From assembly GCA_050008355.1 (NCBI GenBank), contig JBEKMT010000001.1:72-64071 (forward strand): DNA of 64,000 nt, given 5' to 3'. A program made the position numbers and the translations under genes. Below the pieces are notes generated by a model. The model made no database searches. It saw only the letters and a list, made by a program, of their open reading frames with translations, and was not told the DNA's origin. This document shows positions 900 to 51,002 of the stretch, piece after piece. Positions within the stretch are counted from its first letter, which is position 1; each line of letters opens with the position of its first letter. The DNA comes from Verrucomicrobiota bacterium. GTDB taxonomy: Bacteria > Verrucomicrobiota > Verrucomicrobiia > Limisphaerales > UBA11358.

Positions 900-1619
900 T
901 CAAGGCATAGGGCTGTTGTGCAACACCCGCTGGCTCCAGTTACAAATGAGATAGTGATTGGGAGCGGAAGCAGTTGAGTTAATCGCGAGCTGCACCCACA
1001 AATCATACGAGTTGGGATTGTTCGTTCCCGGATAGACATAGCGAAAGGGATTGCCACCGATACCCGCCGGATTGTAATTCAAGTCCGGGCCGCCCACGGA
1101 CGTCACCAAATATGTGAAATTAATGCCGCTGCCATTCGTCGCCGTGGCCGTTTGGGTCGGCTTCAGACCGGGCAAAAAATCCTTGGCAAACGCCGTGTCT
1201 TCGCCACTGCCCTGAGTGCAATTCACAACGCCACCGATGTTAAATTGACTTTTATAATCAATGGCCTTAACCGAGGTAACGGAATCCAAAGTCTGATAAG
1301 TTCCGGCGGCACTATTAAGCGTGACACCGGATAATTCGTAGTACAACTGGTTGAGCATGGAATTGTCAGGATTGGACGGCGGATACACCCCGTGCGCGGC
1401 CTTGTAACTTTCCAGTGCCGTCTCGATTTGTTGGAGTTCAGCCTGAGCGGTGTTCTCTTTCTTGACGCGGGATACGTTGGTTGCCACCGGGAGGATCAGC
1501 GCTGCGAGCACGGCGATGATGGAAATCACGACGAGCAACTCCACCAGGGTGAAAGCTTCGCGCCGACGCTCATTCCGGTTCTGCCAATTCATATTCAAGG
1601 GTGTCATTTTTCGAGCCAT
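900..1619 (-). CDS. prepilin-type N-terminal cleavage/methylation domain protein (pseudopilin)
   Basis: The 239-aa ORF has an ATG start. Its N-terminus ...NRNERRREA|FTLVELLVVISIIAVLAALILP is a pilin-like methylation motif with Glu+5, but with Ala rather than Gly at -1. Confidence 0.85.
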   Translation of the reverse strand: MARKMTPLNMNWQNRNERRREAFTLVELLVVISIIAVLAALILPVATNVSRVKKENTAQAELQQIETALESYKAAHGVYPPSNPDNSMLNQLYYELSGVTLNSAAGTYQTLDSVTSVKAIDYKSQFNIGGVVNCTQGSGEDTAFAKDFLPGLKPTQTATATNGSGINFTYLVTSVGGPDLNYNPAGIGGNPFRYVYPGTNNPNSYDLWVQLAINSTASAPNHYLICNWSQRVLHNSPMP

Positions 1620-1632
1620 TATTCTCGAGCCA

Positions 1633-1908
1633 TTATTTCTCGCGCAGTTCCTGCTCCATCCGCTCGCTCAACCATTGCTTGACCATGCTTTGGTAATTCA
1701 AATACCGCGACCGGGCCAACCGCTTGATCCGAGCCAGCATCCGGGGGTCGAACCGCAAGGTCACGGTGACCGACTCGGAGGACTCCGCGTTCCCGGCGGT
1801 TGCCGCCTCCATCAACCGGAGGTCAGGCCGGTTCTCGCCCCAAAAATCCGCCTCCGCCTCCTCACTGTCGAAGAGCGGCACTTCCTCCCAATTTGCAAAC
1901 GTCCGCAT
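1633..1908 (-). CDS. brnA: BrnA-type antitoxin (CopG/RHH-like, COG3514 family)
   Basis: The 91-aa protein has the C-terminal segment VTLRFDPRMLARIKRLARSRYLNYQSMVKQWLSERM, typical of BrnA-family antitoxins. It lies 20 nt downstream of a DUF497-like ORF. Confidence 0.7.
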   Translation of the reverse strand: MRTFANWEEVPLFDSEEAEADFWGENRPDLRLMEAATAGNAESSESVTVTLRFDPRMLARIKRLARSRYLNYQSMVKQWLSERMEQELREK

Positions 1909-1928
1909 GACTCGTACTTTTACTAAGA

Positions 1929-2210
1929 TTAGGACAAATTCTGGTCCATTTTGCGCTGGTAAAAGAATCGTTCCTCAGGTTCAAAAGGTCGAGCCTGCAG
2001 CACGCGCACCTGGCGTCCATTGGTCCGGTAGACGCTGAATATGCCGATGCCACCCGCGGACATGCCGAGATTGAAAAATCGCGTCTGCACCCCGAATCGC
2101 GGGGAGTCCGGCAGCAGCCGAACGGCAAACGCATCTTCAAACGATTCCTCGATTTCCCGATGCGTCAAAGAGCCCATGTCGAATGGCGCATTGTTCCAAT
2201 CAAACTCCAT
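1929..2210 (-). CDS. brnT: BrnT-type toxin (DUF497 family ribonuclease toxin), divergent
   Basis: The 93-aa protein starts MEFDWN and contains ...GRQVRVLQARPFEPEERFFY, matching the DUF497 pattern (FEWD ... RIISARxAxxxExxxY). It sits upstream of brnA, as in BrnTA modules. Confidence 0.6.
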   Translation of the reverse strand: MEFDWNNAPFDMGSLTHREIEESFEDAFAVRLLPDSPRFGVQTRFFNLGMSAGGIGIFSVYRTNGRQVRVLQARPFEPEERFFYQRKMDQNLS

Positions 2211-2341
2211 AATGGCTCAATTGTAAACAATTCGCACATGCAATGTAACTACAATGTATTTACCAAACAGCAGCATACTTGTCAATAGTTCTTATCAATA
2301 GCTCTTCTGATTTCAGCTGAAACTGCCCGAGCAGACCCGAT

Positions 2342-3652
2342 TTATTCGCCTTTGCCGCCGCCAGAGTCCCCGGACATATTGCTAATCATCTGGATGAGAG
2401 GCAAAAACATCGCAATGACGATGCTACCGACGATTACGGCAAGAAAAATGATCATAATTGGCTCCAACAGGGAGGTCATGGCGGAAACCGCGTTATCGAC
2501 CTGTTCGTCATAGTCGTCGGCGATACGCATGAGCATTTCCGGCAAGGCGCCGGTTTGTTCGCCGACGTCCACCATGCTGACGACCATGGGTGGAAACACG
2601 CCGGAACCTTCCATGGGAGCGGTGATGGTCTCGCCTTCCTTGACGCTTTCATGAATCTTATTGACGGCGCCGGCGATAATGACATTGCCGGCCGTTTCGC
2701 GAACGATGGTCAGGGCCTGCAAAATGGGCACACCGCTGCTGACGAGCGTACCCAAGGTGCGGGTGAAACGGGAGATGGCCACCTTGCTGATGACGGGACC
2801 GAGGGCGGGCATGTGGAGTTTGAACTTATCCCAGAGATGACGTCCGAAATTGGTCTTGATGAACAACAGAAACGCGATCACGCACAGCGCCAGGACACCC
2901 GCCGTAGCCAGGATGTTGTTCTTAATGATATCGCTGACACCCATGACGAACAGGGTAAAACCAGGCAGCTTGAACCCCATGCCGGCAAATACGTCCTTGA
3001 ACTTGGGCACGACAAAGCACATGAGCAAAATCATGATGCCGATGGCGACGATCAACACGGCGATGGGATAAAAGAGTGCGGCCTTGACCTTGCCTTTGAT
3101 CTTTTGCGCCTTTTCGGAGAATTCCGCGAGCCGCTTGAGCACGACTTCGAGCACACCGCCGAGTTCGCCGGCCTTGACCATGTTGACAAAGAGGCGGTTG
3201 AAAACTTTAGGATGTTGCGCCAGGGCTTCCGAGAAGGTACTGCCACCTTCAATCGAAACGGCCAACTGGCCAAGAATATCCTTCAGCGTGGCATTGCGTT
3301 CCTGCTTCTCCAACACACGCAGCCCGCGCAACAGCGGCAGGCCGGCATCCACCAGCGTTGCCAGCTGGCGGGTGAAAGTCGTCAACACTTTTGGTTTCAC
3401 CTTCCCGCTGAGGAAGGGAATCTTGATGTTGATGTTCATCGCGGCACCCTTCTTGCCGGCTTTGGGTTTGGCGGCCTTGGCTTTTCCCTTCTTGGCGGGA
3501 GACTTATCCTCCTTGTCCGCCTCGGTGATCTTGGTCGGGAACAGGTTCATCTCCTTGACGCGCCCGATGGCCTCGTTCTGGCTGCCGACCTCGATGCTGC
3601 CCTTGGTTTCGTTCCCGCGGGAATCCAAAGCTACGTAATTATATCTGGGCAT
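2342..3652 (-). CDS. pilC: type IV pilus / T2SS platform protein (PilC/GspF family)
   Basis: The 436-aa protein has two T2SSF-like repeats (LATLVDAGLPLLRGLRVL... and LGTLVSSGVPILQALTIV...), three TM segments and the N-terminal Y-x-Y-x-A-x-D-x-x-G motif. Confidence 0.9.
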   Translation of the reverse strand: MPRYNYVALDSRGNETKGSIEVGSQNEAIGRVKEMNLFPTKITEADKEDKSPAKKGKAKAAKPKAGKKGAAMNINIKIPFLSGKVKPKVLTTFTRQLATLVDAGLPLLRGLRVLEKQERNATLKDILGQLAVSIEGGSTFSEALAQHPKVFNRLFVNMVKAGELGGVLEVVLKRLAEFSEKAQKIKGKVKAALFYPIAVLIVAIGIMILLMCFVVPKFKDVFAGMGFKLPGFTLFVMGVSDIIKNNILATAGVLALCVIAFLLFIKTNFGRHLWDKFKLHMPALGPVISKVAISRFTRTLGTLVSSGVPILQALTIVRETAGNVIIAGAVNKIHESVKEGETITAPMEGSGVFPPMVVSMVDVGEQTGALPEMLMRIADDYDEQVDNAVSAMTSLLEPIMIIFLAVIVGSIVIAMFLPLIQMISNMSGDSGGGKGE

Positions 3653-3664
3653 AACAAATACGGG

Positions 3665-5368
3665 TTAAGTGTATTTAACTACTTCTTCAATGGTTGTATC
3701 ACCGTCGAATATACTCCGCAAGCCGTCTTCGCGCAACGTGACCATGCCCAGTTCCACGGCTTTCTGGCGCACGACCACGGTGGGGGCGCGTTCATTGATC
3801 AAAGTACGGATGGCATCGCTGACGACCAGCAGCTCGTAAATGCCCTTGCGCCCCTTGTAACCGGTGTCGTTGCAAACGGAACAACCGCGTCCGTAATGAA
3901 AAACCTTATCGCCCAGGTCATGCGGCGAGAGGTTGAGCATGGCGAGCTGGTCCTCGGTCGGTTCAAAGGGTGTGCGGCAGTTTTTACAAGTGGTCCGCAC
4001 CAGGCGCTGCCCGAGCACGGCCATCAGGGTTGAAGAAATGAGGAAGGGTTCGACGCCCATGTCCACCAGACGGGTTACGGCACCCGGCGAATCGTTGGTG
4101 TGAAGGGTGCTCAAGACCAAGTGGCCGGTCAGCGACGCCTGGATGGAAATCTGGGCCGTTTCAAGGTCGCGCATTTCACCGACCATGATGATATCGGGAT
4201 CCTGACGCAAAAATGATTTCAACGCCTTGGCAAACGTCATCCCCGCCGCCTCGTTGATGGCCACCTGCATGATACCTTCGATATCGAATTCGACGGGATC
4301 CTCCGCGGTGAGCAATTTGGAATCGATTGTGTTAACCCGGCGCAGGCAGGAATACAGGGTCGTGGTTTTGCCCGAACCTGTCGGGCCGGTGACCACGAAG
4401 ATCCCATTGGGGCGCTGGATGACTTCGCTCACGAATTCGTGAACATATTTCGGAAAACCAAGCGCCTCGAGCTCAAGGTTCACCGAGCCGCGATCCAACA
4501 CGCGCAGCACGACCGATTCGCCGAACGCGGTGGGGAGGGTGCTGACGCGCAAATCGACCTGGCGGTTGTTGATGTGGTGGGTGATGCGCCCGTCCTGCGG
4601 CAGTCTTTTTTCCGAGATGTTCAACCCCGCCATGACCTTGATACGCGAAATCACCGGCAGGGAGAGATATTTTGGCGGGGGCGCCATTTCATAGAGGGCG
4701 CCGTCGACGCGATACCGGATGCGAAACTCGGTTTCGAAGGGTTCGAAGTGAATGTCGGAGGCGCGGTCGATCACGGCCTGTTGCAAGACGAGGTTGACGA
4801 ACTTTACGATGGGGACCTCATTGGCCAGCGCTTCGGCGGCCCGGGCGTCATCGGCGGCCTCGTCCACCTCGCGGGCGATATTTTTGTCCGCACCGATCTC
4901 CTTGAGGATTTCGGAGAAACTTTCGCTTTCCTGCTGACCGTAAAAGCGTTCAATGGCCTTCTGAATGTCGGCCGGGTCGGCCACGACGACCTGCACATCG
5001 CGCTTGATGGCAAATTGGATTTCATCCGGGCGGGACGGATCGAGAGGTTCGGCCAGGGCAATCTGCACCGAGCCGTTTTTCGTGCCGACCGGCAAACAGT
5101 TATACATCTGGGCGACTTTGACGGGAACCAGATTGAGTACTTCCTGCGGAATCTCGCGGTCGCGCAAAGACACCACCTCGGTCCCCAGCGCGTGGGCCTC
5201 GGTTTGCAAGATATCCTCCAGCTTCATGATGCCGAAGTCCTGCAAAATCTGGATCACCGGCGTGGCATTGCGCTTGAACTCGGCGACGACGCCTTCAAAT
5301 TGCAAATCATCAATCATCCCCTGCTCTTGGATCAGGTTCAGCAACGGACTGGAAACTTCTTCGGGCAT
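3665..5368 (-). CDS. pilB: type IV pilus assembly ATPase (PilB/GspE family)
   Basis: The 567-aa protein has an N-terminal T2SSE_N-like domain, Walker [11 protein letters not shown], Walker B/Asp box IMVGEMRD, His box [14 protein letters not shown] and a tetracysteine CKNC...CSVC motif. Confidence 0.9.
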
Positions 5369-5374
5369 GAAAAA

Positions 5375-6481
5375 TTATTTCTTTTGACGGCCCTGCTCCA
5401 CCGCGGCCGCGAGGTCGAGTTCCTGGAGTTTGGACATGATGGTGGTGGGATCCTGTGACTTGTTAATGACTTCTTCGCGGGCAATCCAGCCTTTGATGTA
5501 TTGGTCGATCAACCACGAGTCCAGGGTCACCATGCCATATTTTGATCCGGTTTGGATGTCGGATTGGATACGGAAGGTTTTATTATCGCGGATGAGCGCG
5601 GCGATGGAGGGGGTATTGACCATGATTTCAAACGCGGCCACGCGGCCCGGCTTGTCAATGCGCGGAATGAGCAACTGCGAAATCACCGCCTGCAAGACAG
5701 TGGAGAGCTGGATGCGAACCATTTCCTGCTGGTTCGTGGGGAAGGCATTGGTCAGACGGTCAATGGTCTTGGCCGCACCGGTGGTGTGCAGGGTGCCGAA
5801 AACCAAGTGGCCCGTTTCCGCCGCGGTGATGGCGGCTTCAATGGTTTCCAAGTCACGCATTTCGCCGACGAGGATCATGTCCGGGTCCTGCCGCAAGGCG
5901 CGGCGCAAGGCTTCGGCGAAATTCGGCACGTCGACGTGGACTTCGCGCTGGGTGATGAGGGCCTTCTTGTGTTTGTGATAATACTCGATCGGGTCTTCAA
6001 TGGTGATGAGGTGAACTTCATCGCGCGTCTCATTGACGATGTTCAAGAGCGAGGCGAGAGTGGTTGACTTGCCGGAACCGGTCGGGCCGGTAACGAGAAT
6101 CAGACCGCGCGGCTTGAACAAAAGCTCCTTCACCGATTCCGGCAGGCCAATTTGCTCGAAGGTGAGCATCTTGCTGGGGATCTGGCGGAGCACCATGCCG
6201 AAATTTCCCTTTTCCTTGAACACGCTCACGCGAAAACGCGCGGCATCACCGAAAGCGAAGGCGAAGTCCGCACCGCCGCGCTCGCGCACCTGCTGGATGT
6301 GTTCCTCGGAGGTAATGCTGCGCATCAATTCCTCGGCGGATTCCGGGGTGAGGGAGGGCCCCTCAACACGGTGCAGAATACCGTGCACGCGAATCGTCGG
6401 CGCCGTGCCGACACGGACGTGCAAATCGGACGCACCTTCGGACACCACCAACTGCAATAGGTCGGACATCGAGTAGGACAT
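5375..6481 (-). CDS. pilT: type IV pilus retraction ATPase PilT
   Basis: The 368-aa protein contains GASDLHV, Walker [30 protein letters not shown] and AAFEIMV, which are PilT-type motifs. It has no N-terminal T2SSE_N domain. Confidence 0.92.
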
Positions 6482-6576
6482 AAAAAATCAAATAAACCGG
6501 CGGGCAGCCGTCGCCGGGAAGGCGATCACGGCCGCGGTGGTTGTGCGCATCGTCATACTATCTTTCACCGGGTGGC

Positions 6577-8283
6577 TCATGCTTCATCGCCGACCGTCGC
6601 GCGGATGACCTCTTCCGGGGTCGTCAGGCCGGCGAGCACTTTGCGGATGCCGTCCTCGCGCAAGGTACGCATGCCCATTTCGCGGGCGCGCTGGCGCAAC
6701 ACACTGGTGGGCACGCGATCGTAAATCAGTTTGCGCCCCTCATCATCCACGACGAAAATTTCAAAGATGCCGAAACGCCCGCGGTTGCCGGAATTGTTGC
6801 AATTGTTGCAGCCGCGGCCTTTCTGGATGTTCGCGTTTTTCAAATCATCCGTCGTGATGCCGAGCACGCGCATTTCCGCCTCGGTTGGCTCGTAAGGGGC
6901 GGCGCATTTCTTGCAAATTTTGCGGACGAGGCGCTGGGCCATGAGGCAGCGGGTGGAGGAGGCAATCAAAAACGGTTTCACGCCAATATCCACCAAACGG
7001 GTGACCGCGCCGGGGGCGTCGTTGGTATGAAGCGTGGAAAATACGAGGTGACCGGTGAGGGAGGCATTAATGGCGATGGACGCGGTTTCCAGGTCACGAA
7101 TTTCCCCGATCATCACGATGTTCGGCGCCTGGCGCAAGATGGCGCGCAAGGCGGAGGCGAACGAGAAACCCACCTGATCGTTGACCTGCACCTGGTTGAT
7201 GCCGGCCAGGACATACTCGACCGGGTCTTCAACGGTGATGATTTTGCGGTCCGGCCGGTTGATGAAATTCAAGCAGGAATAAAGCGTCGTCGTCTTGCCG
7301 GAACCGGTGGGTCCGGTCACGAGCAGAATTCCATCCGGCAAAGCGATGATGCGTTCGAAGGTCGCCTGGTCGTCGCTCAAAAATCCGAGTTCCGGCAGAC
7401 CAAGCCGCAGGCCTTCCTTGTCCAAAATACGCATCACGATGCTTTCGCCGTGGTTCGTGGGCAGACAGGACACGCGCAAGTCGATCATTTTGGTACCGAC
7501 TTTTGACTGGATGCGTCCGTCCTGCGGCACACGATGTTCGGAGATGATCATGCCGGCCTGAATTTTGAGCCGGGCGATGATGGCCGACTGCAACTGCTTG
7601 GGAGGGGATTTCATCTCCTGCAAGATGCCGTCAATCCGGTAGCGCAGGCGAAATCGTTTGCCGAGCGGTTCGAGGTGAATATCCGAGGCGCGGATTTTGA
7701 AGGCCTCCACGATGATCTGGTTGACCAACCGGATCAGGGGCGCGTCCGCGTCGACATCCGCACCGTCGTCGGCGTTCTTGATTTCGACGTTGTCCTGGGT
7801 GAGTTCCTGAATGACGTCCTTGAAGGCCCCGTCGGCCATCGCCTTTTTGTCGCCGCCGTAGTATTTGTTGAGCGCCTGTTCGATGTCCGGTTCGGACGCG
7901 ACGCGCAATTCGATTTCGGCGTGCAAAAGGTGGGTCAGCGAATCAATCGTGTTCAAGTCCGACGGATCGGAGATGGCAACGACCACTTTATCCTCGGTCC
8001 GGAAAACGGGAATGACGCGATATTTTTTGGCGACGTCCCGGGGAACGATGGAAATGACGTCGTCCTCAATCTTCATCCCACTGAGCGTCACGACTTCCGC
8101 GCCGAATTGGGCCGCCTTGGCCTGGGTCACGTCAGCAGGCCGGATCACCTTGTTGGCCACGAGCAGATCCACGACGCCCACGCCGGCGGCGGTGGCCTCC
8201 TCGCGGGCCTTGGCAACCACTTCAGAGTTGGTGAACCCGAGGTCAACCAGAAGGTCCAGTAAATAATCGTCTTTTTCTGCCAC
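6577..8283 (-). CDS. second PilB/GspE-family secretion/assembly ATPase
   Basis: The 568-aa protein has a T2SSE_N-like N-terminus, [32 protein letters not shown] and the tetracysteine CKKC...CNNC. It is clearly paralogous to 3665..5368. Confidence 0.9.
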   Translation of the reverse strand: MAEKDDYLLDLLVDLGFTNSEVVAKAREEATAAGVGVVDLLVANKVIRPADVTQAKAAQFGAEVVTLSGMKIEDDVISIVPRDVAKKYRVIPVFRTEDKVVVAISDPSDLNTIDSLTHLLHAEIELRVASEPDIEQALNKYYGGDKKAMADGAFKDVIQELTQDNVEIKNADDGADVDADAPLIRLVNQIIVEAFKIRASDIHLEPLGKRFRLRYRIDGILQEMKSPPKQLQSAIIARLKIQAGMIISEHRVPQDGRIQSKVGTKMIDLRVSCLPTNHGESIVMRILDKEGLRLGLPELGFLSDDQATFERIIALPDGILLVTGPTGSGKTTTLYSCLNFINRPDRKIITVEDPVEYVLAGINQVQVNDQVGFSFASALRAILRQAPNIVMIGEIRDLETASIAINASLTGHLVFSTLHTNDAPGAVTRLVDIGVKPFLIASSTRCLMAQRLVRKICKKCAAPYEPTEAEMRVLGITTDDLKNANIQKGRGCNNCNNSGNRGRFGIFEIFVVDDEGRKLIYDRVPTSVLRQRAREMGMRTLREDGIRKVLAGLTTPEEVIRATVGDEA

Positions 8284-8525
8284 GAGATTAATTCAGCGCC
8301 AGCCAACTATTGGATTAAGGGATGGCACGCTGCGAAAAGGTTTCACTTGTGCCTGCAAAAGTCAATGCAGACAAGAAATATTTTAACGGTGGAAGGCCGG
8401 TGGGCGTCCGGAATGGCGAGCTTCGAGCCACCACATGTCGGCGATACTTTGTTGTGCCGGCAGGCCCACCACGCGAATTCTGGCGGAGGAGTAAAGTCGA
8501 AGGCCCGGCATCGCACCGGTTTAAT

Positions 8526-11500
8526 TTAGCGCCGTTTTTTCAAGGAGAGCGCGGCTTCCTCGAGCCACTTGCCGTCCGGCTGGGCATAAGGGCGGAAGGT
8601 TTCGAGATGGCCTTCGCGATCGTTGTAATAGAGCGCACGGTGCAGGCCGAGGGCCGAGCCATTGGGCGCGTCAATCAAGCTGGCGGAGTCGGTGGCACTC
8701 ATCTGGAAGACGACGCGCATCTCAAACTCCGTGAGCATCTTCCGGCCGAGGAACCGGCTGACATTATTGTAAGTGTCGCAAGTGATAATGACATGCATGC
8801 CGCGCGCCGGGCCCTCGGTGATGAGTTTCAAGAGGATGGCGGCGGGGCTGGCGGAGCCGCCGGTGTCGCTGCTCGAAAAGCTGAACTCGTCTTCCTGCCG
8901 GAGCTTCTTGAAATTCTGCAGGCTGTGAACCAGGAGAAAAATCTCCATGCCAGAGGATTCGTTCTCGGTGCGCTGGTTTAACTCTTCCGCCAGGCCGTTC
9001 ATGACGTCCGCCAGACCGGCATTGCCGGCCTGAACCGTTTCATGCGGCACGGAACTGATGACGCGGCGCAAAAATTCGCGAGGGGGAGATCCGGCGGGAG
9101 CGTTGTCGAGCACCACAAACCGGACGCCGGTTTTGGGAAACTGGGAAGCGAGGGAAATCATGGCGACGGACAAAATTGTCAAAGTGCGTTCGTCACTCTG
9201 TCCGACCACAAGCAGATTGCCGCCACTCTGCCGACGGAAGACGGCTTCGGTGGGGCCTTTGATGGAATTGGGTGCACCCAGCCAGGCGCCAACCCGGGCG
9301 GGTGGGGAGACGCTGGTTTCCCTGAGACCGGCGAGCAAAGCATAATTTTCCGACACATCCGCGGGCGCGTTGCCTTCGAATACAATCGGCCCGGGATAAT
9401 CCGGGCCAGCCTGATCGGCGTGCTCCCGGATTTTTGCAAGATAAACGTCCCGCTCCCGGTCGGAGAGCCATACTGCTTGAAAAGGACTGTTGCCCTCGAT
9501 GGCACCGGCGGCGTCATTGTAAATTCCCTCGCCGGGGCGCGAGAGGAGGCGGGGCGCAGGGTTATCCTGATCCATGATGAGGAGGGCGTCGGCTTCGTTG
9601 CATTGAAGCGCGATGCGAATGACCATTTGACCGATGGTGGCCCGGGCGAGAGTGTAAGCGCCGCCCAGTGTCTGGGAGCCGAGCAAGACATGGATGCCGA
9701 AGGCGCGGCCCTGGCGGACAATGCGATCCAGGAGCACGGCGGCTCCCTGTGAAATGTGATCTTCTTCGGTGAAAAACTCCTGGAACTCATCAATCATTAA
9801 CAAGGTGCGGGGAACGGATCCGCCAGCGCGGCGGTAGCCGGCCAAGTCCTGAGCGCCCACTTTGCGGAACAAATCACCGCGGCGACGCAGTTCTTCGTCG
9901 ACCCGCTGGAGAACGCTCAAACCGAATTCGCGATCACTCTCAATGGCAACGACCCGGGCATGCGGGAGGCGGCGGCTGGCGTAACATTTGAACTCGACGC
10001 CCTTTTTGAAATCCACCAGATAAAATTCAACCTGATCCGGGCTGCACCGGAGCGCCAGGTTGGTGATCATGACATGGAACAAGGTGGATTTTCCCGAACC
10101 GGTTTTACCGGCGATCAAAACGTGCTGGCGGGTACCGCTTCCGATCTCAAGATATTGCGATTTGGTGGCACCGGAACGGCCGATGGGAACGCGCAACAAT
10201 TCGGTGGTTTCATCCTTCCAGATTTCCGATTCCGGCGGCGCAATCTGTGAGAACGGCACCTCGACCCGATTGGCGTTCTTGCTGCTCTGGCCGATGCGTT
10301 GAAGGAACCCGGTGGCGAATTCCGGGGGGGGTGGCGGATCCAGGAGCAAATGGATGCCGGGAGCCCGCCAGCCGGACAACTCATAACCGCGGCCGTTATG
10401 AACCAGGCAAGTGCTGTTTTGACGCAGCTCATCGGGAACAAAATCGGTCGGTGTGGCATTGCGCTGATCCCAATGCACGAGCAAGTGGACACCGCAACGG
10501 GCACCACTCGCGGCGATGTTGCGCAACCGGCGCGCGGCGTTGTCGTTGAAGTTCACCGGGAAAGAGGCGATGACGAGGAAATGATATTTTTCCGCGACAC
10601 TGCCAGCCTCGGCGTTGTAATCGGCGATGGTGGCATATTCGTTGCGGAGATACATCTGGATGATCTTCTCCATGTGCTCATTCAGCTCGGCCAGCTTTTC
10701 CTCGAACTGCGCGGTTTGCGTCCAAATGCGGCTGTTGATGCAACCCTCCTCGTAATCGGCGAGATGCATGAGGGTGGCGAAATTCTGCCCCAGCCCGACC
10801 GGGTCAAAGATGGTGAAACTCAAACGGCCGGGCGGCGAAGAGGACAGCAGGCGGAATATAATATTGTTGATCACACCGAAAGCTTCGTCGCCACTGGTCT
10901 TACCGCTTTCGAACAGAATGGATCCTTGCAACGGGCAAACCAACGAGAGCGGAAGGGAAAGGGTTGCCGGACCGGGCCAAGCCAGGCGTTTATCCTTCGG
11001 CATCACCTCCACAAATTTTTCCACGGCCACCTCGAGGCACCCAAATTTCACGGTGTTCTGAAAATTCGCCGGCGGGGTCCACTTTTCCCAGTCGGCGGCG
11101 CTCCAGGCTGGAAAGAGCTTCTTCGCCGTGACAATGGCGGCCTCGAGCTGATCGCACAACGATTGGATCCCGCGGTTCCAATCCGCCACCAGTTCCCGCC
11201 AGCGGAGTTGATTTTTCCCGCCGAGCTCCGCTATGCGCGCGTCGTGGGCCTGAGTGACCTGCTGGACGCGGGCGAAGTCCGCCCTTTTCAATTCCGCGAG
11301 GACGGCGGCCTGATGCCGCTCAAGGCGTTCCTGTTCGCGGTGGTGCCACCGCTCCAATTTACCTTCCAGGCGGGCAACTTTTTCGGCAATGGTCGCCGGC
11401 CACATTTCACGTTGATAATTAATATCCCGAACGGCCTGCCGCCATTCCTGATTGACCGAATGTTTGTTGTTTTCGAATTGCGCCTTGATCCGTTCCTGTT

Positions 11501-12404
11501 CCTGCTGGTAATGCACCTCGGATTTTTCGCGACCGGCAGCGATCAAGCGTCCGGCGAGGGCAATATGGCCGGCGATGGAGCGAGCCAGCGGAGCCGCGCT
11601 GCGACCACCGAGCCAGTGGACCACGGTGAGCAACACCAACAGGATTACGGCGGTAGCGGCTTCAAAATGGGAAATGTCGTTCCGGCCAAAATGAACCAGG
11701 ACCGGGTCCGCCGCCGCCACGCCCAGCAACAATATCCCGATCAGCCAGACGGGGAGGAATTTGAAAATGACGGGGAACAAAAACTTTTTGAAGCTGGTCA
11801 GCTCCTCGTTGATTTTTGACTGGAGGCCGCGGAATTCATCATAGAGACCATTGTGATTTGCGGAGAGGTCCGGCTCAGGCCACGCACGTCCGGGAGCGAG
11901 GAGCCGCCGGAACCGGCCATAGCCGCGGAATGCACGGCGCGCTGCTTCCTTCAATTGCGCCAAACTGACTTCCGCCGCATCCAGATTTTGCTGGAAATTT
12001 TCGCGATCGCCGGCGGCCTGGGCGAGGCCTTTTTCCTGCTGCTGCTCCAATTCCACCGCCACCTGCCGGGTGCGCTCGCTCCACCGGCGGTCGTGATCGC
12101 TGATTTCGGTGAGTCCTCGTTCGCTCAGACGGGCATGAGCGCGGCTGATCCGGTCCCGGCGTTTTGCGAAACGGGTCTGCAGTTGTTCTTTTTCAGTTTC
12201 CAGTATGGCTTCCGCGTTCGTCAGTTGCACGGAGGCCAGGGATTCCTGCTGTTCGTTCCGGGCAGCAAATTCATTGTCTGCGGCAGCGGTCTGAACGCGA
12301 AACTCGCCATTCAATTTCTCTTCGCGCGCGACGAAATCCCGGACGGTATTCTTCAACGTCTCCAGCAATGCAAGCATTTCCCTGACCCCTGGCTGGCTAT
12401 TCAC
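8526..12404 (-). CDS. FtsK/SpoIIIE-family membrane ATPase, EssC/EccC-like (type VII-like secretion ATPase)
   Basis: The protein is 1292 aa. Residues 1-205 are heptad-rich and charged (coiled-coil-like). Two hydrophobic segments follow (FLFPVIFKFLPVWLIGILLLGVAAA, AATAVILLVLLTVVHWLGG), then a second coiled-coil stretch. Three FtsK-like modules come last. Module 2 has canonical Walker A AGKTGSGKST (nt ~10083-10109), Walker B LLMIDEF (nt ~9783-9803) and RQGRAFGIHVLLGSQ. Modules 1 and 3 keep the fold signatures (ARCGVHLLV, ARGMHVIIT) but have degenerate Walker motifs. The track start at 12404 is GTG; an in-frame ATG lies at 12377. Confidence 0.85.
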   Translation of the reverse strand: MNSQPGVREMLALLETLKNTVRDFVAREEKLNGEFRVQTAAADNEFAARNEQQESLASVQLTNAEAILETEKEQLQTRFAKRRDRISRAHARLSERGLTEISDHDRRWSERTRQVAVELEQQQEKGLAQAAGDRENFQQNLDAAEVSLAQLKEAARRAFRGYGRFRRLLAPGRAWPEPDLSANHNGLYDEFRGLQSKINEELTSFKKFLFPVIFKFLPVWLIGILLLGVAAADPVLVHFGRNDISHFEAATAVILLVLLTVVHWLGGRSAAPLARSIAGHIALAGRLIAAGREKSEVHYQQEQERIKAQFENNKHSVNQEWRQAVRDINYQREMWPATIAEKVARLEGKLERWHHREQERLERHQAAVLAELKRADFARVQQVTQAHDARIAELGGKNQLRWRELVADWNRGIQSLCDQLEAAIVTAKKLFPAWSAADWEKWTPPANFQNTVKFGCLEVAVEKFVEVMPKDKRLAWPGPATLSLPLSLVCPLQGSILFESGKTSGDEAFGVINNIIFRLLSSSPPGRLSFTIFDPVGLGQNFATLMHLADYEEGCINSRIWTQTAQFEEKLAELNEHMEKIIQMYLRNEYATIADYNAEAGSVAEKYHFLVIASFPVNFNDNAARRLRNIAASGARCGVHLLVHWDQRNATPTDFVPDELRQNSTCLVHNGRGYELSGWRAPGIHLLLDPPPPPEFATGFLQRIGQSSKNANRVEVPFSQIAPPESEIWKDETTELLRVPIGRSGATKSQYLEIGSGTRQHVLIAGKTGSGKSTLFHVMITNLALRCSPDQVEFYLVDFKKGVEFKCYASRRLPHARVVAIESDREFGLSVLQRVDEELRRRGDLFRKVGAQDLAGYRRAGGSVPRTLLMIDEFQEFFTEEDHISQGAAVLLDRIVRQGRAFGIHVLLGSQTLGGAYTLARATIGQMVIRIALQCNEADALLIMDQDNPAPRLLSRPGEGIYNDAAGAIEGNSPFQAVWLSDRERDVYLAKIREHADQAGPDYPGPIVFEGNAPADVSENYALLAGLRETSVSPPARVGAWLGAPNSIKGPTEAVFRRQSGGNLLVVGQSDERTLTILSVAMISLASQFPKTGVRFVVLDNAPAGSPPREFLRRVISSVPHETVQAGNAGLADVMNGLAEELNQRTENESSGMEIFLLVHSLQNFKKLRQEDEFSFSSSDTGGSASPAAILLKLITEGPARGMHVIITCDTYNNVSRFLGRKMLTEFEMRVVFQMSATDSASLIDAPNGSALGLHRALYYNDREGHLETFRPYAQPDGKWLEEAALSLKKRR

Positions 12405-12609
12405 AATCGCTCCTCACCTTTCTCAACAATGCCTCAAGCTTATCCACAATGATGAGTGTACGATCCACGCTGGCAGTGAGCTCCGCCATGTGCCGGCTTT
12501 CGAATTCCCGGCTCTTGGCGTCCTGCCAATGGTTCTTGGTATCCGACCATTTCAGCAAAAGTTCCCGGGTCAACCCGGTCAGGCGGGCTTTGTTGCCATT
12601 CAAATTCAT
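12397..12609 (-). CDS. small helical WXG100-like protein (70 aa, W-Q-D variant)
   Basis: This is the C-terminal 70 codons of track ORF 12397..12981: MNLNGNKARLTGLTRELLLKWSDTKNHWQDAKSREFESRHMAELTASVDRTLIIVDKLEALLRKVRSDCE. Its ATG (12609-12607) overlaps the TGA of the upstream gene (ATGA). Its stop overlaps the ATPase GTG start by 8 nt. The central HWQDxxxxEF resembles the WxGxxxxxF motif of Esx proteins. Confidence 0.55.
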   Translation of the reverse strand: MNLNGNKARLTGLTRELLLKWSDTKNHWQDAKSREFESRHMAELTASVDRTLIIVDKLEALLRKVRSDCE

Positions 12610-13136
12610 CCTGGATTCTCCGTTTCGTCCGTGTGGTTTGCGGGGCCGGGCGAGGCGTGGGCAGGCGTCACATTCCGGTAGGCGGCCAGCGCGTTGAGAA
12701 TCTGGTCGAGATAGGCGACGGCGCGGCCCATGTCCATGACCAGGAACCCCTGCAATTGTTCCACCTGCTTGGTCAACGGAGCGGAGCGGTCCTCCAGATC
12801 GCGGTTCCATTTTTTGATGGCCGCGAGTTTGCCTTCCGCCTCCTGAACCGCGCGTTGCGCGCGTTGCACCGCCATGTAGTGCAGTGACGAGGCTTCCTGC
12901 AGAGAGGATAGTTTGGCGGCAAACAGTTCCTGCCTGGCTTCCTCCAGTTTCCGCTGCCGGCGGCGCAGTTCCAGGTCCCAAAGCCGACGCTGGTCATTTT
13001 GGAGCCAGAGTCTGGTCTGAACCGCCTCATGGCTGATCTCCTCCAGCAGAGGACGGGCCTGGCTCAGATACACAATCAGGCTGGCCCTGAAGGATTCAAT
13101 GGCCTCCACCGAAGTGATCTGGGCTTGTTGCGGCAT
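12606..13136 (-). CDS. hypothetical all-helical protein of the WXG-like cassette (176 aa)
   Basis: The ORF has an ATG start 4 nt after the stop of the 90-aa gene. Its composition is helical and charged (LELRRRQRKLEEARQELFAAKLSSLQEA...). It has Trp-centred motifs (LWLQND, KKWNRDLED) and an acidic/Pro-rich tail. I recognise no family. Confidence 0.6.
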   Translation of the reverse strand: MPQQAQITSVEAIESFRASLIVYLSQARPLLEEISHEAVQTRLWLQNDQRRLWDLELRRRQRKLEEARQELFAAKLSSLQEASSLHYMAVQRAQRAVQEAEGKLAAIKKWNRDLEDRSAPLTKQVEQLQGFLVMDMGRAVAYLDQILNALAAYRNVTPAHASPGPANHTDETENPG

Positions 13137-13140
13137 CGGG

Positions 13141-13413
13141 TCAACGCTGGTTCAGATACTCCTCGATGCGCTGCGCCTTTCGCAAAAGAAACGGGGTGTG
13201 TTCCTTGGAAAGTTCGGTGAATTTTTTCAAGGCTTTGAGCGCCTGCCTGAATTCCTCGGAAAACTTTTCGTGTTCCTGGTCCTGCCAGGTGTCGCCCAGG
13301 GCCATAAAGCGGGCATGCAAAAGAACCATCCGGTTCTCGATATCGGTGTTAAAACGTTGCAGTTCTTCAGCGAAGCGCCGCACCTTTTCCGGATCCATGA
13401 TTGCCTGGGCCAT
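13141..13413 (-). CDS. WXG100-like small helical protein (90 aa, W-Q-D variant)
   Basis: The sequence is MAQAIMDPEKVRRFAEELQRFNTDIENRMVLLHARFMALGDTWQDQEHEKFSEEFRQALKALKKFTELSKEHTPFLLRKAQRIEEYLNQR. Length, predicted helix-turn-helix layout and the central TWQDQEHEKFSEEF mirror the W-x-G-x-x-x-x-x-F-x-x-x-F core of EsxA-type proteins, with G replaced by D. Confidence 0.65.
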   Translation of the reverse strand: MAQAIMDPEKVRRFAEELQRFNTDIENRMVLLHARFMALGDTWQDQEHEKFSEEFRQALKALKKFTELSKEHTPFLLRKAQRIEEYLNQR

Positions 13414-13815
13414 AATACTTTTTTATCGGCAGGGTCTTGATCTCGACAGTAGACTGACCGTTTACCGGGTGGTTTTGGCGCTCACTGACCGCCACCGCCC
13501 AACCAAAACACTGCGATTTTGTTCCATTGTTCGATCAGTTGCTCGCCGCAAGATGCTTCATCCGGCCAACGTTCGCAAACAGTTCTATCGCAATTCCGCA
13601 TGCCGGTTCCAGCCAAATTGTTCCGGACCCAACCCGATGTTGCCGCGGAAACATTCGCGCGGAGCGAACTGTTGCAGGAGCATCTCGTTGGCCCGGCAGC
13701 CTCGCGTGGCCACATGAGTCATCACTGGAAAAATCCTCGATTTGAAAACCGGGGTGGCATCAGCTATTCTAGCTGAACAATTGGCCCATACCGCCAGCGC
13801 CTGAAAGATTTGTCC

Positions 13816-14448
13816 ATGAAGCAACTCAATAAGCCAGCCAGCCGAATTGCCATTGCCCTGCTCTGCCTCGGGTTCACCGGCTGCCAAACACACAAAACCA
13901 TCGCGCCCCTGGGCGGCGGTTATGAGGAAATCAACCATCCTGTGCACAGTTTGCTCCCCGACTCCACGCCTTCGCGCACGTCGCTTGAATACAAGGATCC
14001 CGACGGGAAGACCATCACGGTATGGCCATCCCTGTATTGCTTCAACGAAGTGGTGAAAGGCGACCTGGCGATTTTTGTTGCGGAAAAAGCTTACCTGAAT
14101 GACGGCGACCGGGGCGTTCATCCCCGGCTCTTCGCGGTGAGGTCACCAGCCATACCACTGGACATCACGGACGAAGTCTTGTGGCGGTGGTCGAAGGCGA
14201 ACGGGAAGGACCTGAATAAAACCTTTAACCGGTTCAACGTCGCGACACCGAAGGAACAAAACGGTGAGTTGGAGGTGCATCTGGAATTCTGGCAGGGAAG
14301 CTATATGACGGACGAGGACTGGCCTGACACGGGTGATATACAACTGGACTGGCAACAAGTCTCGGAAATCATGCAGGCGGTTGAAAAGAAGGGTGTATTG
14401 CAAAAAGATTTGCGGTGGAACACCTCGTATATCGGGGAAAAATTCTAA
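13816..14448 (+). CDS. hypothetical lipoprotein
   Basis: The ATG at 13816 is in frame with the track's TTG at 13810. The signal peptide carries a lipobox: MKQLNKPASRIAIALLCLGFTG|C. I recognise no family. Confidence 0.65.
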   Translation: MKQLNKPASRIAIALLCLGFTGCQTHKTIAPLGGGYEEINHPVHSLLPDSTPSRTSLEYKDPDGKTITVWPSLYCFNEVVKGDLAIFVAEKAYLNDGDRGVHPRLFAVRSPAIPLDITDEVLWRWSKANGKDLNKTFNRFNVATPKEQNGELEVHLEFWQGSYMTDEDWPDTGDIQLDWQQVSEIMQAVEKKGVLQKDLRWNTSYIGEKF

Positions 14449-14641
14449 CCATTAGATGCAACGGGCTGCCTCGATCCGTGACCCAGCCGGCGAAAGCAGG
14501 CGTGAGAATCAGTAGCATCTCCGACGGTTTGGCCGTTGATGCTGAGGCTCCGTCGCCCAAAGTCACAAAACTGTAACCTGTTCGCCATTTGATCGAAACC
14601 TGCAGGCGTGAACGTTTTAAACTGATAATAATCATCAATAT

Positions 14642-42422: not shown

Positions 42423-43438
42423 TTGGCACCTTCGGTTTGGACCTGGCCAAAAACCAGGACGCCAGCGCCGGTTTGAACGGTGCTTTGAATCTGCACTTCC
42501 GCGCTCTTGCCAACGAGTGCCTGGGCGTTGTTAACCACCACCATTGTACCGTCGGGCATGTAGCCGATACCCTGCCCTTTTTCGCGGCCTTCCCGGACAA
42601 TTTTCAACTGCACGATTTCGCCGGGGATCATCTCGACTTTCATGCAGTGGGCAACCTCGTTGAGATTCACACAGGCGACACTCTGCAGGCCGGCAATTTT
42701 GGCGAGATTATAGTCGTTGGTGAATAGCTTCGCATTCAGATTGCGCGCCAGGCGAACAAGTTTGGAGTCCACGCCCTTTTCCTCGGGAAAATCGCCATCA
42801 TGGATGCGGACTTCCAGCTTCGGGTTATGCTGGAGCCGGTTGAGCATTTCAAACCCTCGCCGGCCGCGGGCGCGCTTGATTTCATCGGGCGAATCGGCAA
42901 TCTGCTGCAATTCAATCAGGACGAAGCGCGGCACGACCACCAGCCCCTCGACAATCCGGGATTCGATTAAATCAGCGATGCGTCCATCAATGATGACGCT
43001 GGTATCAAGCAGCAGCAAATTATCTGGTTTGTTTTGCGGCGAAAAACGGACGTAAGGAATGATGAGTGAAAAATCCTCCTTGTTGCTGCGCATGGCGAGC
43101 ACGATGCCGATGTAGCCGAAGCCCAGGAACAGGCACAGGCGGATGAGCCAGCGAACTTTTTCCTCGGTGTTCTCAAACAGTCCGGAATGGTCGACTAAAG
43201 AGGCCACCGCCGTGCCGAGCAGCAGGCCGAAGGTGGTTGCGGAAAATGCGCGCAGCGAAAAGCCCTTCAACATTTCGTCGATGGCGATAAGCAGGCCACC
43301 AAAGCCAAAACCGACCATCATGCCGGTAATTTCACCGTGCTGCTGGCTGATAAACTCAGGTCGCACCTGGCTGATGGCGTAACCGCCCGCAATGCACAGG
43401 CCGAGGAATAATACACGTATGGGCCAAAGTGGATTCAT
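42419..43438 (-). CDS. membrane-anchored PIN/TRAM domain protein (YacL-like)
   Basis: It has 4 N-terminal TM segments. The PIN region is LLLLDTSVIIDGRI...VVPRFVLIELQQIADS...RGRRGFEML...TNDYNLAKIA. The TRAM region is GQGIGYMPDGTMVVV...VQIQSTVQTGAGVLVFG. Confidence 0.8.
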   Translation of the reverse strand: MNPLWPIRVLFLGLCIAGGYAISQVRPEFISQQHGEITGMMVGFGFGGLLIAIDEMLKGFSLRAFSATTFGLLLGTAVASLVDHSGLFENTEEKVRWLIRLCLFLGFGYIGIVLAMRSNKEDFSLIIPYVRFSPQNKPDNLLLLDTSVIIDGRIADLIESRIVEGLVVVPRFVLIELQQIADSPDEIKRARGRRGFEMLNRLQHNPKLEVRIHDGDFPEEKGVDSKLVRLARNLNAKLFTNDYNLAKIAGLQSVACVNLNEVAHCMKVEMIPGEIVQLKIVREGREKGQGIGYMPDGTMVVVNNAQALVGKSAEVQIQSTVQTGAGVLVFGQVQTEGAK

Positions 43439-44400
43439 GGGTGCGTGCTACTGTCGGTGTTGGTTGCCGGTGCCTTATGCGACCACAAAATGCCCCATAA
43501 TCCGTGACGATTCAAGTTACTGCTGGTGATGGCCAGATTGGCGGCGATAATCTGGACATTCGTCGCCAGTTCTTCATTTTGCAATACGGTTCCTGCCAGT
43601 CCCTTGCCGGCTTGAAGGTCGGCGGACATCTGTTTGAGATTTACGGAAATCTCCTGAATGTTCTTGGTGGCAGCGTTGAGATTCTGGCCGTTGGTCGTCA
43701 AGATGGTTTGGGCCGAGTTGGCGAGCTGTGTCAGTTCCGTCGAGAAATAAACAAAGTTGCTAAAGGCTGTGTCGATTTGCGGACCGTTGGTCGCGACAAT
43801 GGTCTGGATCCCGTGCACAGCCTCCAGCGCCTGCTCTGTAACCGCCCGCATATTCGTCATGGCCACACCGAAACTGGAAAGCGTCTGGGCATTCAAGACC
43901 TGCGCGCGTAAATCCGTAACGGATGCATCCAGCTTTTTCGCCGTGCCGTCAATTTGCTGGATGAAGCCGGACGCCGAACGGGCGACTTCCTGGAGGTTGA
44001 ACGGCGCATCGCAGGGCACCTCGGCATTGTTGGTCAGCAACGGCAGTTCGTTGTCAGTCGGATTGACCGAGACGTATTGGTCACCCAAAAACCCGGACTG
44101 CTCGATCACAAAATGCGCGTCATGATAGATCGGGTAATCCTTGTAGATTTTCAAGATCATCGTAACGCTTTTGCCGTCAGCGGCGAGTTGGATGTCCGTG
44201 ACCGTGCCGACCTGCACACCGGCAAGTAACACCGCCGCGCGCGGCTTGATACCGCCAACATTGGCCGCGTGCAGATGCAGTTCATAAGTGCCGCGGAAAA
44301 GGCTCGTGCCTTTGCTGAATTGGATCAGCAACACCGCCAATAGCGCCAGTCCCAAAAAGACGAACAGCCCGACTTTGATTTCCAATCGCGATTTTTGCAT
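43435..44400 (-). CDS. mlaD: MlaD/MCE-family lipid-transport substrate-binding protein
   Basis: It has an N-terminal TM segment and an MCE domain (AANVGGIKPRAAVLLAGVQVGTV), then a long helical C-terminus. It sits in an mlaE-mlaF-mlaD operon. Confidence 0.8.
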   Translation of the reverse strand: MQKSRLEIKVGLFVFLGLALLAVLLIQFSKGTSLFRGTYELHLHAANVGGIKPRAAVLLAGVQVGTVTDIQLAADGKSVTMILKIYKDYPIYHDAHFVIEQSGFLGDQYVSVNPTDNELPLLTNNAEVPCDAPFNLQEVARSASGFIQQIDGTAKKLDASVTDLRAQVLNAQTLSSFGVAMTNMRAVTEQALEAVHGIQTIVATNGPQIDTAFSNFVYFSTELTQLANSAQTILTTNGQNLNAATKNIQEISVNLKQMSADLQAGKGLAGTVLQNEELATNVQIIAANLAITSSNLNRHGLWGILWSHKAPATNTDSSTHP

Positions 44401-44403
44401 GAG

Positions 44404-51001: not shown

Positions 51002-51002
51002 C

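Follow-up and report, generated by a model that had tools for sequence, protein, structure and literature searches.

The 64,000-nucleotide stretch of DNA analysed here (the window) comes from a Verrucomicrobiota bacterium of the order Limisphaerales (assembly GCA_050008355.1, contig JBEKMT010000001.1). On its minus strand, at positions 8526-13413, it carries a cassette of four genes encoding proteins of 90, 176, 70 and 1292 amino acids (aa). We assign the first protein to the WXG100 family and the last to the FtsK/SpoIIIE superfamily, as a membrane-anchored ATPase resembling EssC and EccC. In Verrucomicrobiota subdivision 3 and in one Phycisphaerales genome, the four genes are inherited together as a unit. 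The placement of the cassette in the operon class "WXG100 plus three-module EssC-like ATPase" is very probably correct. On balance, we favour the view that it is a stand-alone, toxin-free, membrane-anchored minimal type VII-like system operating by the mechanism proposed below. Taken by itself, the export of protein across the inner membrane by this system is a question on which we regard the chances as even.

The original prediction for this DNA described four packed minus-strand genes with a 4-nt gap, an ATGA overlap and an 8-nt overlap, and the coordinates of the open reading frames (ORFs) match this description exactly (Table 1). The ATGA is shared by the stop codon of the 176-aa gene and the start codon of the 70-aa gene. 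We compared the arrangement with 165 related loci. All four genes are found in the same order and on the same strand in 134 of them; of the remainder, 23 are truncated on the upstream side, and 8 are without some or all small genes. When the loci with enough upstream DNA are counted (n = 142), the cassette is conserved in 134 as the unit that it had been taken for, and therefore the arrangement is not due to chance. The 8-nt overlap of the 70-aa and ATPase genes is identical in 121 of those 134 loci. At three loci (L037, L105 and L094), the 70-aa and ATPase genes lie 650-2356 bp apart. The start of the ATPase gene still resembles the usual overlapping junction ("...TGTGA..") at these loci, which suggests an insertion at the junction.

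The 90-aa protein scored 32.7 bits against the Pfam WXG100 profile (PF06013, gathering score 27.3) over residues 6-85. Its turn motif is LGDTW43-Q-D45, that is, W-x-D instead of the literal W-x-G. The Trp and the Asp of this motif are each kept in at least 90% of 67 family members. Judging by the profile match and the motif, the protein is a WXG100-family member of a WxD variant. The nearest solved relative is HP0062 of H. pylori (3fx7/2gts, E 3e-5, full length), followed by EsxA of S. aureus. Over 68 loci, the length of the protein is invariably 90 aa and its identity is 68-93%.

All 32 homologues of the 70-aa protein are exactly 70 aa long, and W21, W28, D30, S33, E35 and F36 are invariant among them. 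The family thus carries an invariant W28-x-D30...E35-F36 motif, together with an equally invariant acidic C-terminus, R-S-D-C-E. The DCE tail is constrained at the protein level, because it is kept where the gene does not overlap the ATPase gene. The same non-overlapping loci rule out the idea that the invariance of the tail is an artefact of overlap with the start and ribosome-binding site of the ATPase gene. Using hhalign with broader alignments, we obtained matches of the 70-aa protein to the WXG100 subfamily with E values of 3.7e-4 to 1.6e-3 and a probability of 16-37%. The W-x-D...E-F motif was placed in register with the motif of the 90-aa protein. When alignments of close relatives alone were used, hhalign gave no signal for the small proteins against the WXG100 family, nor for the first against the second ATPase module (D1 and D2, see below). 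Taken together, the comparisons are suggestive of a WXG100-like protein.

The 176-aa protein was modelled using AlphaFold2 with 48 sequences. The model consists of helices at residues 3-78 and 84-156, with disorder from residue 157 and a mean predicted local distance difference test score (pLDDT) of 77. There is no Trp at the turn, and profile comparison shows no WXG100 signal. As modelled, the protein is a single long helical hairpin, each helix measuring about 75 residues, and is no WXG100 member. It has 590 homologues, none of them informatively named, and Foldseek gives non-specific coiled coils only, with E > 0.3. Searches of Pfam, NCBIfam and PADLOC yielded nothing meaningful for the 70- and 176-aa proteins: the latter matched no Pfam or NCBIfam family, and the former had no Pfam or PDB sequence match. 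Matches to Prominin and to the "YWTD" of LRP6 that appeared in these searches were rejected as chance motif matches. None of the three small proteins has a signal peptide or a hydrophobic segment, which fits Sec-independent substrates. It had been proposed that all three are WXG100-like. This holds for the 90-aa protein by the Pfam score, is suggestive for the 70-aa protein and fails for the 176-aa protein.

The 1292-aa protein matched the Pfam family FtsK_SpoIIIE with 110.7 bits. Profile searches on the four proteins therefore returned WXG100 and FtsK_SpoIIIE, as had been anticipated for the 90-aa protein and the ATPase, and no family for the other two. Against NCBIfam, the ATPase scored 110 bits with EccCa (cut-off 509), 91 with EccCb (347), 88 with EssC (778) and 27 with FtsK (1566), and the EccC/EssC equivalog cut-offs are far from reached. 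Among PDB sequences, EccC of T. curvata (109 bits), EccC5 and YukB of B. subtilis came ahead of FtsK (40 bits) and TcpA. We also modelled aa 440-1292 using AlphaFold2. The model (pLDDT 62) shows three successive beta-alpha-beta modules with moderate confidence. The underlying alignment was shallow, with 75-89% identity to the query. Therefore, the domain orientations and the TM-scores (0.28) are meaningless, and we used the ranking of the matches alone. In the Foldseek search, the three-ATPase structure of EccC (4nh0) came first, with E 3.5e-24 and an alignment along the whole chain. EccC D2-D3 and EssC followed at 1e-14 to 1e-17, with EssC itself at about 1e-14 to 1e-15. TcpA came at about 1e-8 and FtsK at about 3e-7. 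These rankings place the protein, as sequence and as model, with the EssC/EccC-like, membrane-anchored members of the FtsK/SpoIIIE superfamily. The label "EssC/EccC-like" is thus appropriate for the closest named and solved relatives of the ATPase. It does not extend to the catalytic layout, in which the central module alone is intact, and the scores lie below the NCBIfam cut-offs.

The N-terminal region of the ATPase (aa 1-205) consists to 59% of A, E, L, R, Q and K and contains runs of up to 63 residues free of Pro and Gly. It is probably a coiled coil and cytoplasmic. Two hydrophobic segments follow, at aa 207-240 and 243-271, where Kyte-Doolittle windows of 19 residues peak at 2.38 and 2.12. 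The resulting transmembrane (TM) hairpin has the same position in 35 of 35 diverse family members, despite an identity of about 17% there. Between the hairpin and the modules, aa 272-470 are likewise charged and little conserved and contain runs of 44 and 46 residues free of Pro and Gly, consistent with a helical region. The rest of the chain is divided into three FtsK-like modules, D1, D2 and D3. Using hhalign with a diverse alignment, we matched D1 to D3 (probability 95.5%, E 1.6e-8) and D3 to D2 (97.2%, E 4.4e-11); the direct comparison of D1 with D2 was non-significant. The Walker A motif of D2 is G766-K-T-G-S-G-K772-S (10086-10109), and its Walker B motif is LLMIDEF (9783-9803). Walker A and the triad D872-E873-F874 are invariant in 35 diverse sequences. 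The corresponding positions of D1 and D3 are degenerate in all 35 aligned sequences, and the Walker A equivalent of D3, VVGQSDERTL, has no lysine. All the ATPase motifs quoted in the original prediction were located, namely AGKTGSGKST at aa 765-774, LLMIDEF at aa 868-874 and RAFGIHVLLGSQ at aa 900-911, and the Walker A lysine is K772. On the strength of these motifs, D2 is predicted to be the sole catalytically competent module. It aligns to all three ATPase domains of EccC, and best to EccC D1. D3 is a candidate substrate-docking domain by analogy with EccC D3, which binds the EsxB signal (PDB 4n1a).

ATPase homologues with 65-82% identity are numerous, and the few with organism names are Verrucomicrobiota metagenome-assembled genomes (MAGs). 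A scan of one genome per GTDB species revealed a relative in at least 194 genomes. The best 80 of the 194 belong almost all to Verrucomicrobia subdivision 3, Limisphaerales or Pedosphaera. In an exhaustive search of 1.84 billion cluster representatives (50% identity), more than 150 proteins of about 1300 aa matched over nearly the full length with 40-57% identity, and Phycisphaerales and Planctomyces are among the named cluster members. The layout is kept at about 40% ATPase identity, as at locus L083 with proteins of 90, 229, 70 and 1369 aa. A Phycisphaerales genome (L084, Planctomycetota) has the full layout with 90, 211, 72 and 1306 aa, and a Planctomyces locus carries the ATPase alone. Several MAGs with the titles Bifidobacteriaceae, Sulfotelmatobacter, Sulfopaludibacter, Acidoferrum, Acidiferrales and Limnocylindrales carry a cassette of the Verrucomicrobia type and are probably mislabelled or contaminated bins. 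The loci with such odd titles are L005, L016, L019, L026, L027, L031, L032, L042, L053, L055 and L066. L027 and L061, both with the full cassette, belong to a single MAG. Full-length ATPase genes that stand as orphans, with no small genes within 3-8 kb upstream, were seen at L032, L095, L096, L155, L135 and L085. At L058 and L115, only some of the small genes are missing. The same unrelated genes precede the ATPase gene at L032 and L096, suggesting that the two form a paralogous lineage.

We determined how far each protein has diverged over the 68 loci. The WXG100 protein has a mean identity of 85% and the ATPase one of 60%, and the former exceeds the latter in every one of the 68 loci; the 176-aa and 70-aa proteins average 55% and 54%. 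Identity of the 176-aa protein ranges from 38 to 66%. The divergence of the four genes is correlated (r = 0.66-0.84), and the 176-aa protein co-diverges with the ATPase with r = 0.84. Within 6-10 kb on either side of the cassette, no other family occurs in more than 11 of the 165 loci. No outer-membrane, toxin, immunity or mobility gene is conserved nearby, and no integrase, transposase, relaxase or replication gene recurs in the flanks. We found no paralogue of the small proteins in the window or in the flanks. Since divergence is correlated, the flanks hold mostly ordinary cellular genes and mobility genes do not recur, the cassette looks vertically inherited.

The class to which the cassette belongs was described earlier by computation. 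In Table 1, footnote 6, of Zhang et al. 2012 (Biol Direct, PMC3482391), a solo WXG protein is associated with a "YueA-like" three-domain ATPase in which the middle domain alone is active. The footnote names Verrucomicrobia and Planctomycetes and speaks of "mobile versions of T7SS" (type VII secretion system). The cassette agrees with this class in the solo WXG100 protein, the three FtsK-like modules of which just the central one is active, and the phyla. It differs in two extra conserved small genes and a conserved TM hairpin, which the footnote does not mention. The "mobile" label does not suit the cassette: no mobility genes recur, divergence is correlated and GC content is near the window average. 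Plasmids do carry more distant relatives of the class. Bell et al. 2024 (eLife, PMC11090510), who cite Anantharaman et al. 2012 for the class, found the same module in CoCoNuT/TerY-P defence loci, with an EssC homologue in which the central domain alone is active. In their class, the ATPase carries at its N-terminus a coiled coil longer than 200 residues and lacks TM helices. There are two WXG100 proteins, one of them without the motif, and a fusion of a coiled coil with a nuclease; stand-alone versions exist elsewhere (PMC11090510). The novelty implied by the original prediction is thus reduced, since the class with Verrucomicrobia and Planctomycetes was computed in 2012 (PMC3482391) and again in 2024 (PMC11090510). 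What stands is that we found no experimental study of it.

We examined three plasmid loci of the class. On the Caballeronia plasmid pSBC2-5 (L166), the gene order is VWA, WXG100 (89 aa), 436 aa, 113 aa, 76 aa, ATPase (927 aa), CARF/Card1, VWA, PP2C, Ser/Thr kinase and AAA. As in the cassette, a motif-bearing WXG100 protein is encoded with a second small motif-less protein directly upstream of the ATPase, and a coiled-coil protein lies between the two. This likeness is shared with the class of Bell et al. The 436-aa protein in the coiled-coil slot has no Pfam match, whereas its counterpart in that class carries a nuclease domain. The differences concern the ATPase, which is 927 aa long without TM helices in Caballeronia and membrane-anchored in the Planctomycetes-Verrucomicrobia-Chlamydiae (PVC) group, and the VWA, CARF, PP2C and kinase flanks, none of which is found at PVC cassettes. 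On the Helicobacter plasmid pNHP190012_1 (L168), the order is WXG (89 aa), WHH nuclease toxin, SMI1/KNR4 (SUKH) immunity protein, 77 aa and ATPase (823 aa). The succession of WXG gene, variable genes, small gene (77 aa) and ATPase gene is thus the same. However, a toxin and an immunity protein are present, the 823-aa ATPase has at most one marginal hydrophobic segment, and there is no homologue of the 176-aa protein. The WXG proteins of both plasmids are clear homologues of the 90-aa protein (E 9e-24 for Caballeronia and 7e-16 for Helicobacter). A Rhodococcus plasmid (L167, 5492-10922) encodes an ATPase of the same class with 1322 aa and 31% identity over D1-D3. Its small genes are downstream, not upstream (314 aa, 73 aa and an 87-aa WXG protein), with TerD-family genes adjacent, and the 73-aa protein carries W-R-D where the 70-aa protein has its own such motif. 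The Caballeronia ATPase has no TM hairpin, and the ATPases of the Helicobacter and Rhodococcus plasmids show marginal segments only. In the PVC cassettes, the slot between the WXG100 and 70-aa genes holds a conserved domain-less hairpin where relatives have a toxin or nuclease.

A WxG protein with an FtsK protein in H. pylori (HP0062/HP0066) has been termed a minimal T7SS set (PMC4978471). HP0062 resembles the 90-aa protein as its closest solved structure, as a W-x-D variant (WRD) and as a protein of a diderm host. With the T7SSa and T7SSb systems, the cassette shares a WXG100 gene beside a gene for a two-TM, three-module ATPase, a fold closest to EccC/EssC and substrate candidates without signal peptides. 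It differs in that their accessory membrane components are not conserved near the PVC cassette and in that the host envelope is of the lipopolysaccharide (LPS) type. EssC has FHA domains at the N-terminus, where the PVC ATPase has a charged, helix-prone, probably coiled-coil region. In EccC and EssC, D1 or D1 and D2 are catalytic, and here it is the middle module only.

These comparisons allow us to propose a mechanism. The ATPase would form a hexamer in the inner membrane, by analogy with motors of the FtsK superfamily, and its 12 TM helices would form or gate the sole conduit. The 90-aa WXG100 protein would assemble into a helical bundle, pairing with itself as HP0062 does or with the 70-aa protein as a truncated partner. 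Docking on a degenerate module, most likely the C-terminal one, may involve the invariant acidic C-terminus of the 70-aa protein or else the last helix of the WXG100 protein, in the way that EsxB docks on EccC D3. ATP turnover in D2 would then power export of the folded bundle to the periplasm. The 176-aa hairpin, which occupies the cargo or toxin slot of proteobacterial versions, may be co-exported. The periplasm or envelope would be the simplest destination to assume, given that no outer-membrane partner is conserved. Because the WXG100 protein is so strongly conserved, a housekeeping task in the envelope seems likelier than antagonism. In its full form, namely housekeeping type VII-like export in LPS-type diderms by the ATPase hexamer alone, moving a bundle of the 90-, 70- and 176-aa proteins to the periplasm, this proposal is tentative and may well prove wrong.

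Several points weigh against such a secretion system. The original prediction noted that none of EssA, EssB, EsaA, EccB, EccD, EccE and MycP is recognisable in the flanks. This was borne out over the 165 loci, where no such family recurs and no equivalent of EccB/D/E, MycP, EssA/B or EsaA/EsaB is conserved near the cassette. With no conserved partners nearby, transport either ends in the periplasm or needs unlinked genes. The central-only catalytic layout is unlike that of EccC and EssC. In 8 of the 142 informative loci, the ATPase occurs without some or all of the small genes. A channel of two TM helices per protomer is an unproven proposal, and export is what we infer for the class as a whole. 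The partnership of the 90- and 70-aa proteins and the docking site are putative, and the ATPase model is of low-to-moderate confidence (pLDDT 62). The closest described relatives lie in defence islands, have no TM helices and may not secrete (PMC11090510). We found no experimental paper on such a system in an LPS-type diderm.

The last relatives raise the question of whether the cassette is a conflict or defence module without secretion, in which the WXG100 and coiled-coil proteins are acted on by an ATPase that stays in the cytoplasm or at the membrane, serving to sense or counter phages and other invaders, and nothing is exported. On the Caballeronia plasmid, the same class does sit between VWA genes beside CARF/Card1, PP2C, Ser/Thr kinase and AAA genes, and Bell et al. 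2024 (PMC11090510) favour a mechanism other than classical secretion for those versions. PADLOC also gave partial matches to the FtsK-like domains of SspH and mad8, but these span the generic P-loop module only. No defence neighbour recurs in the 165 loci, the flanks examined being mostly metabolic or housekeeping, and the TM hairpin conserved in the PVC ATPase is absent from the defence-island version. An identity of about 85% for the WXG100 protein across an order-level clade is also unlike fast-evolving defence genes. We consider a defence module unlikely. In another reading, the 176-aa protein is a polymorphic toxin that the module exports to antagonise other bacteria. This would agree with Zhang et al. 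2012 (PMC3482391), who regard WXG/T7SS as a means of trafficking toxins. It would also agree with the Helicobacter plasmid, whose corresponding slot is taken by a WHH-family HNH nuclease toxin with a SMI1/KNR4 (SUKH) immunity protein behind it. However, the 176-aa protein has no toxin or enzymatic domain in Pfam or NCBIfam and is a plain helical hairpin in the model. Its 38-66% identity and co-divergence with the ATPase (r = 0.84) show that it is not polymorphic. It is followed by the conserved 70-aa gene and not by an immunity-like gene, and there is no evident route across the outer membrane or into a target cell. Toxin delivery is therefore improbable to a high degree.

The 176-aa hairpin could instead act on the inner membrane like PspA or Vipp1, organised by the ATPase, in envelope stress or membrane remodelling. 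Vipp1/PspA hairpins are in fact among the Foldseek matches to the model. At E > 0.3 they are no better than chemoreceptors, colicin and BAR domains and have no sequence signal, and such a role leaves the link to the WXG100 protein unexplained. As Foldseek returned generic coiled coils only, we dropped this reading and regard it as extremely unlikely. The same superfamily that contains EssC contains DNA translocases, and some sources label homologues of the ATPase "DNA segregation ATPase FtsK/SpoIIIE". A translocase of the FtsK, TraB or TcpA type, serving segregation or conjugation with the small proteins as accessories, nevertheless fits the scores poorly. NCBIfam gives FtsK 27 bits (cut-off 1566) against 110 for EccCa, and PDB sequences give 40 against 109 for EccC. 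The Foldseek E values of FtsK and TcpA are poorer than that of EccC by about 16 orders of magnitude. Three modules with degenerate flanking ones are a trait of T7SS ATPases, and the association with a WXG100 gene is near-universal. The original prediction would have given way to a translocase if the ATPase had sided with FtsK, TraB or TcpA and if relaxase or integrase genes had flanked it. Similarity favours EccC/EssC, and no relaxase, integrase or replication gene recurs; we give a translocase next to no weight. We thus return to the minimal type VII-like system as the reading that we favour.

The four genes lie in a region with a GC content of 0.57-0.60. A scan of the cassette locus for promoter and terminator consensus sequences gave nothing above shuffled expectation, and an Rfam scan of 8000-14500 found no RNA family. 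In related loci, we noticed a promoter-like element, TTGCGGAA-N(15-20)-GCGATAGT/GCAATAAT, at 25-33 nt upstream of the WXG100 start. It accompanies the cassette in about one quarter to one third of loci (e.g., L003, L013, L086 and L104). Of 126 unique upstream sequences, 28 contain both boxes, where shuffles predict 0.4; relatedness among the sequences inflates the count. The element is absent from positions 13414-13533 of the window, where the upstream region is of a different type. On the plus strand opposite the ATPase gene, there are ORFs of up to 506 aa (8322-12452, e.g., 10299-11819), which are not genes. Their apparent "conservation" in all loci is nothing but a shadow of the ATPase coding sequence.

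It had also been stated that the window encodes KdsA, KdsC, LptA, LptB and MlaFED. Using Pfam, we found KdsA-, KdsC- and LptB-like genes as well as MlaD, an ABC ATPase and MlaE, and no match for LptA. Two plus-strand ORFs (181 and 196 aa) lie at 51512-52644 between the KdsC-like and LptB-like genes, where LptC and LptA would be expected, and have no Pfam match at E <= 1e-5. An HPr kinase gene follows the LptB-like region at 53480-54448. At a related locus, LptF/G adjoins the cassette. With these Kds, Lpt and Mla genes, the host looks like a diderm with LPS machinery. The near neighbours of the cassette include PilB/PilT/PilC-like genes, PAP2 and amidase genes and others. Directly downstream is a block of the type IV pilus or type II secretion system kind (900-8283). 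We considered this block as a conserved partner providing an outer-membrane route and rejected it, since homologues of its four ATPase and platform genes stand beside the cassette in only 7 of 82 related loci; the prepilin-type gene does so in 4. A divergent plus-strand ORF of 212 aa at 13810-14448 has a lipoprotein-like N-terminus (…LLCLGFTGC…) and no Pfam family, and it is not conserved beside the cassette in relatives.

Table 1. Coordinates of the cassette genes, the regions of the ATPase and other genes of the window.
Feature	Position	Strand	Basis and remarks
Gene 1, WXG100-family	13413..13141	minus	90 aa, ATG start
Gene 2, soluble protein, predicted long helical hairpin with disordered tail	13136..12606	minus	176 aa, ATG start; 4-nt gap after gene 1; AlphaFold2
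Gene 3, soluble protein, possible WXG100-like hairpin with shortened first helix	12609..12397	minus	70 aa; start is an internal ATG of a longer open frame; hhalign
Gene 4, FtsK/SpoIIIE-type ATPase	12404..8526	minus	1292 aa, GTG start; 8-nt overlap with gene 3
ATPase N-terminal region, aa 1-205	11790..12404	minus	Charged, helix-rich; 14% identity across diverse family
ATPase two-helix TM hairpin, aa 207-271, short periplasmic loop (predicted)	11592..11786	minus	Kyte-Doolittle
ATPase second helix-rich stalk region, aa 272-470	10995..11591	minus	Composition; family identity 17%
ATPase D1, aa 471-725, degenerate FtsK-like P-loop module	10230..10994	minus	No Walker A lysine or Walker B acid
ATPase D2, aa 726-1000, intact Walker A/B	9405..10229	minus	Family identity 66%, highest of all regions
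ATPase D3, aa 1001-1292, degenerate FtsK-like module	8529..9404	minus	Most confident part of model
PilB/GspE-like	6577-8283	minus	
PilT-like	5375-6481	minus	
Second PilB/GspE-like	3665-5368	minus	
PilC/GspF-like	2342-3652	minus	
Prepilin-type protein	900-1619	minus	
MlaD, ABC ATPase, MlaE	43435-45989		Pfam
KdsA-like, KdsC-like, LptB-like genes	50189-53380		Pfam

Computational work had already recognised the class in 2012 and 2024, and the cassette is of value as a well-delimited and testable PVC instance, not as a discovery. The module is abundant, with at least 194 GTDB species genomes and more than 150 clusters at 50% identity, and extends into Planctomycetota. Its unusually conserved WXG100 protein and the missing toxin point to a physiological and not an antagonistic role. 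Interest in the system would rise sharply if export were demonstrated. In that case, a WXG100 protein and an ATPase alone could make a translocon, which would bear on the minimal or ancestral type VII machine and on its channel component, and type VII secretion would be extended to bacteria with a classical outer membrane. If this export also served a housekeeping function, the cassette would be the smallest T7SS known and the first shown to work in a diderm with a classical outer membrane.

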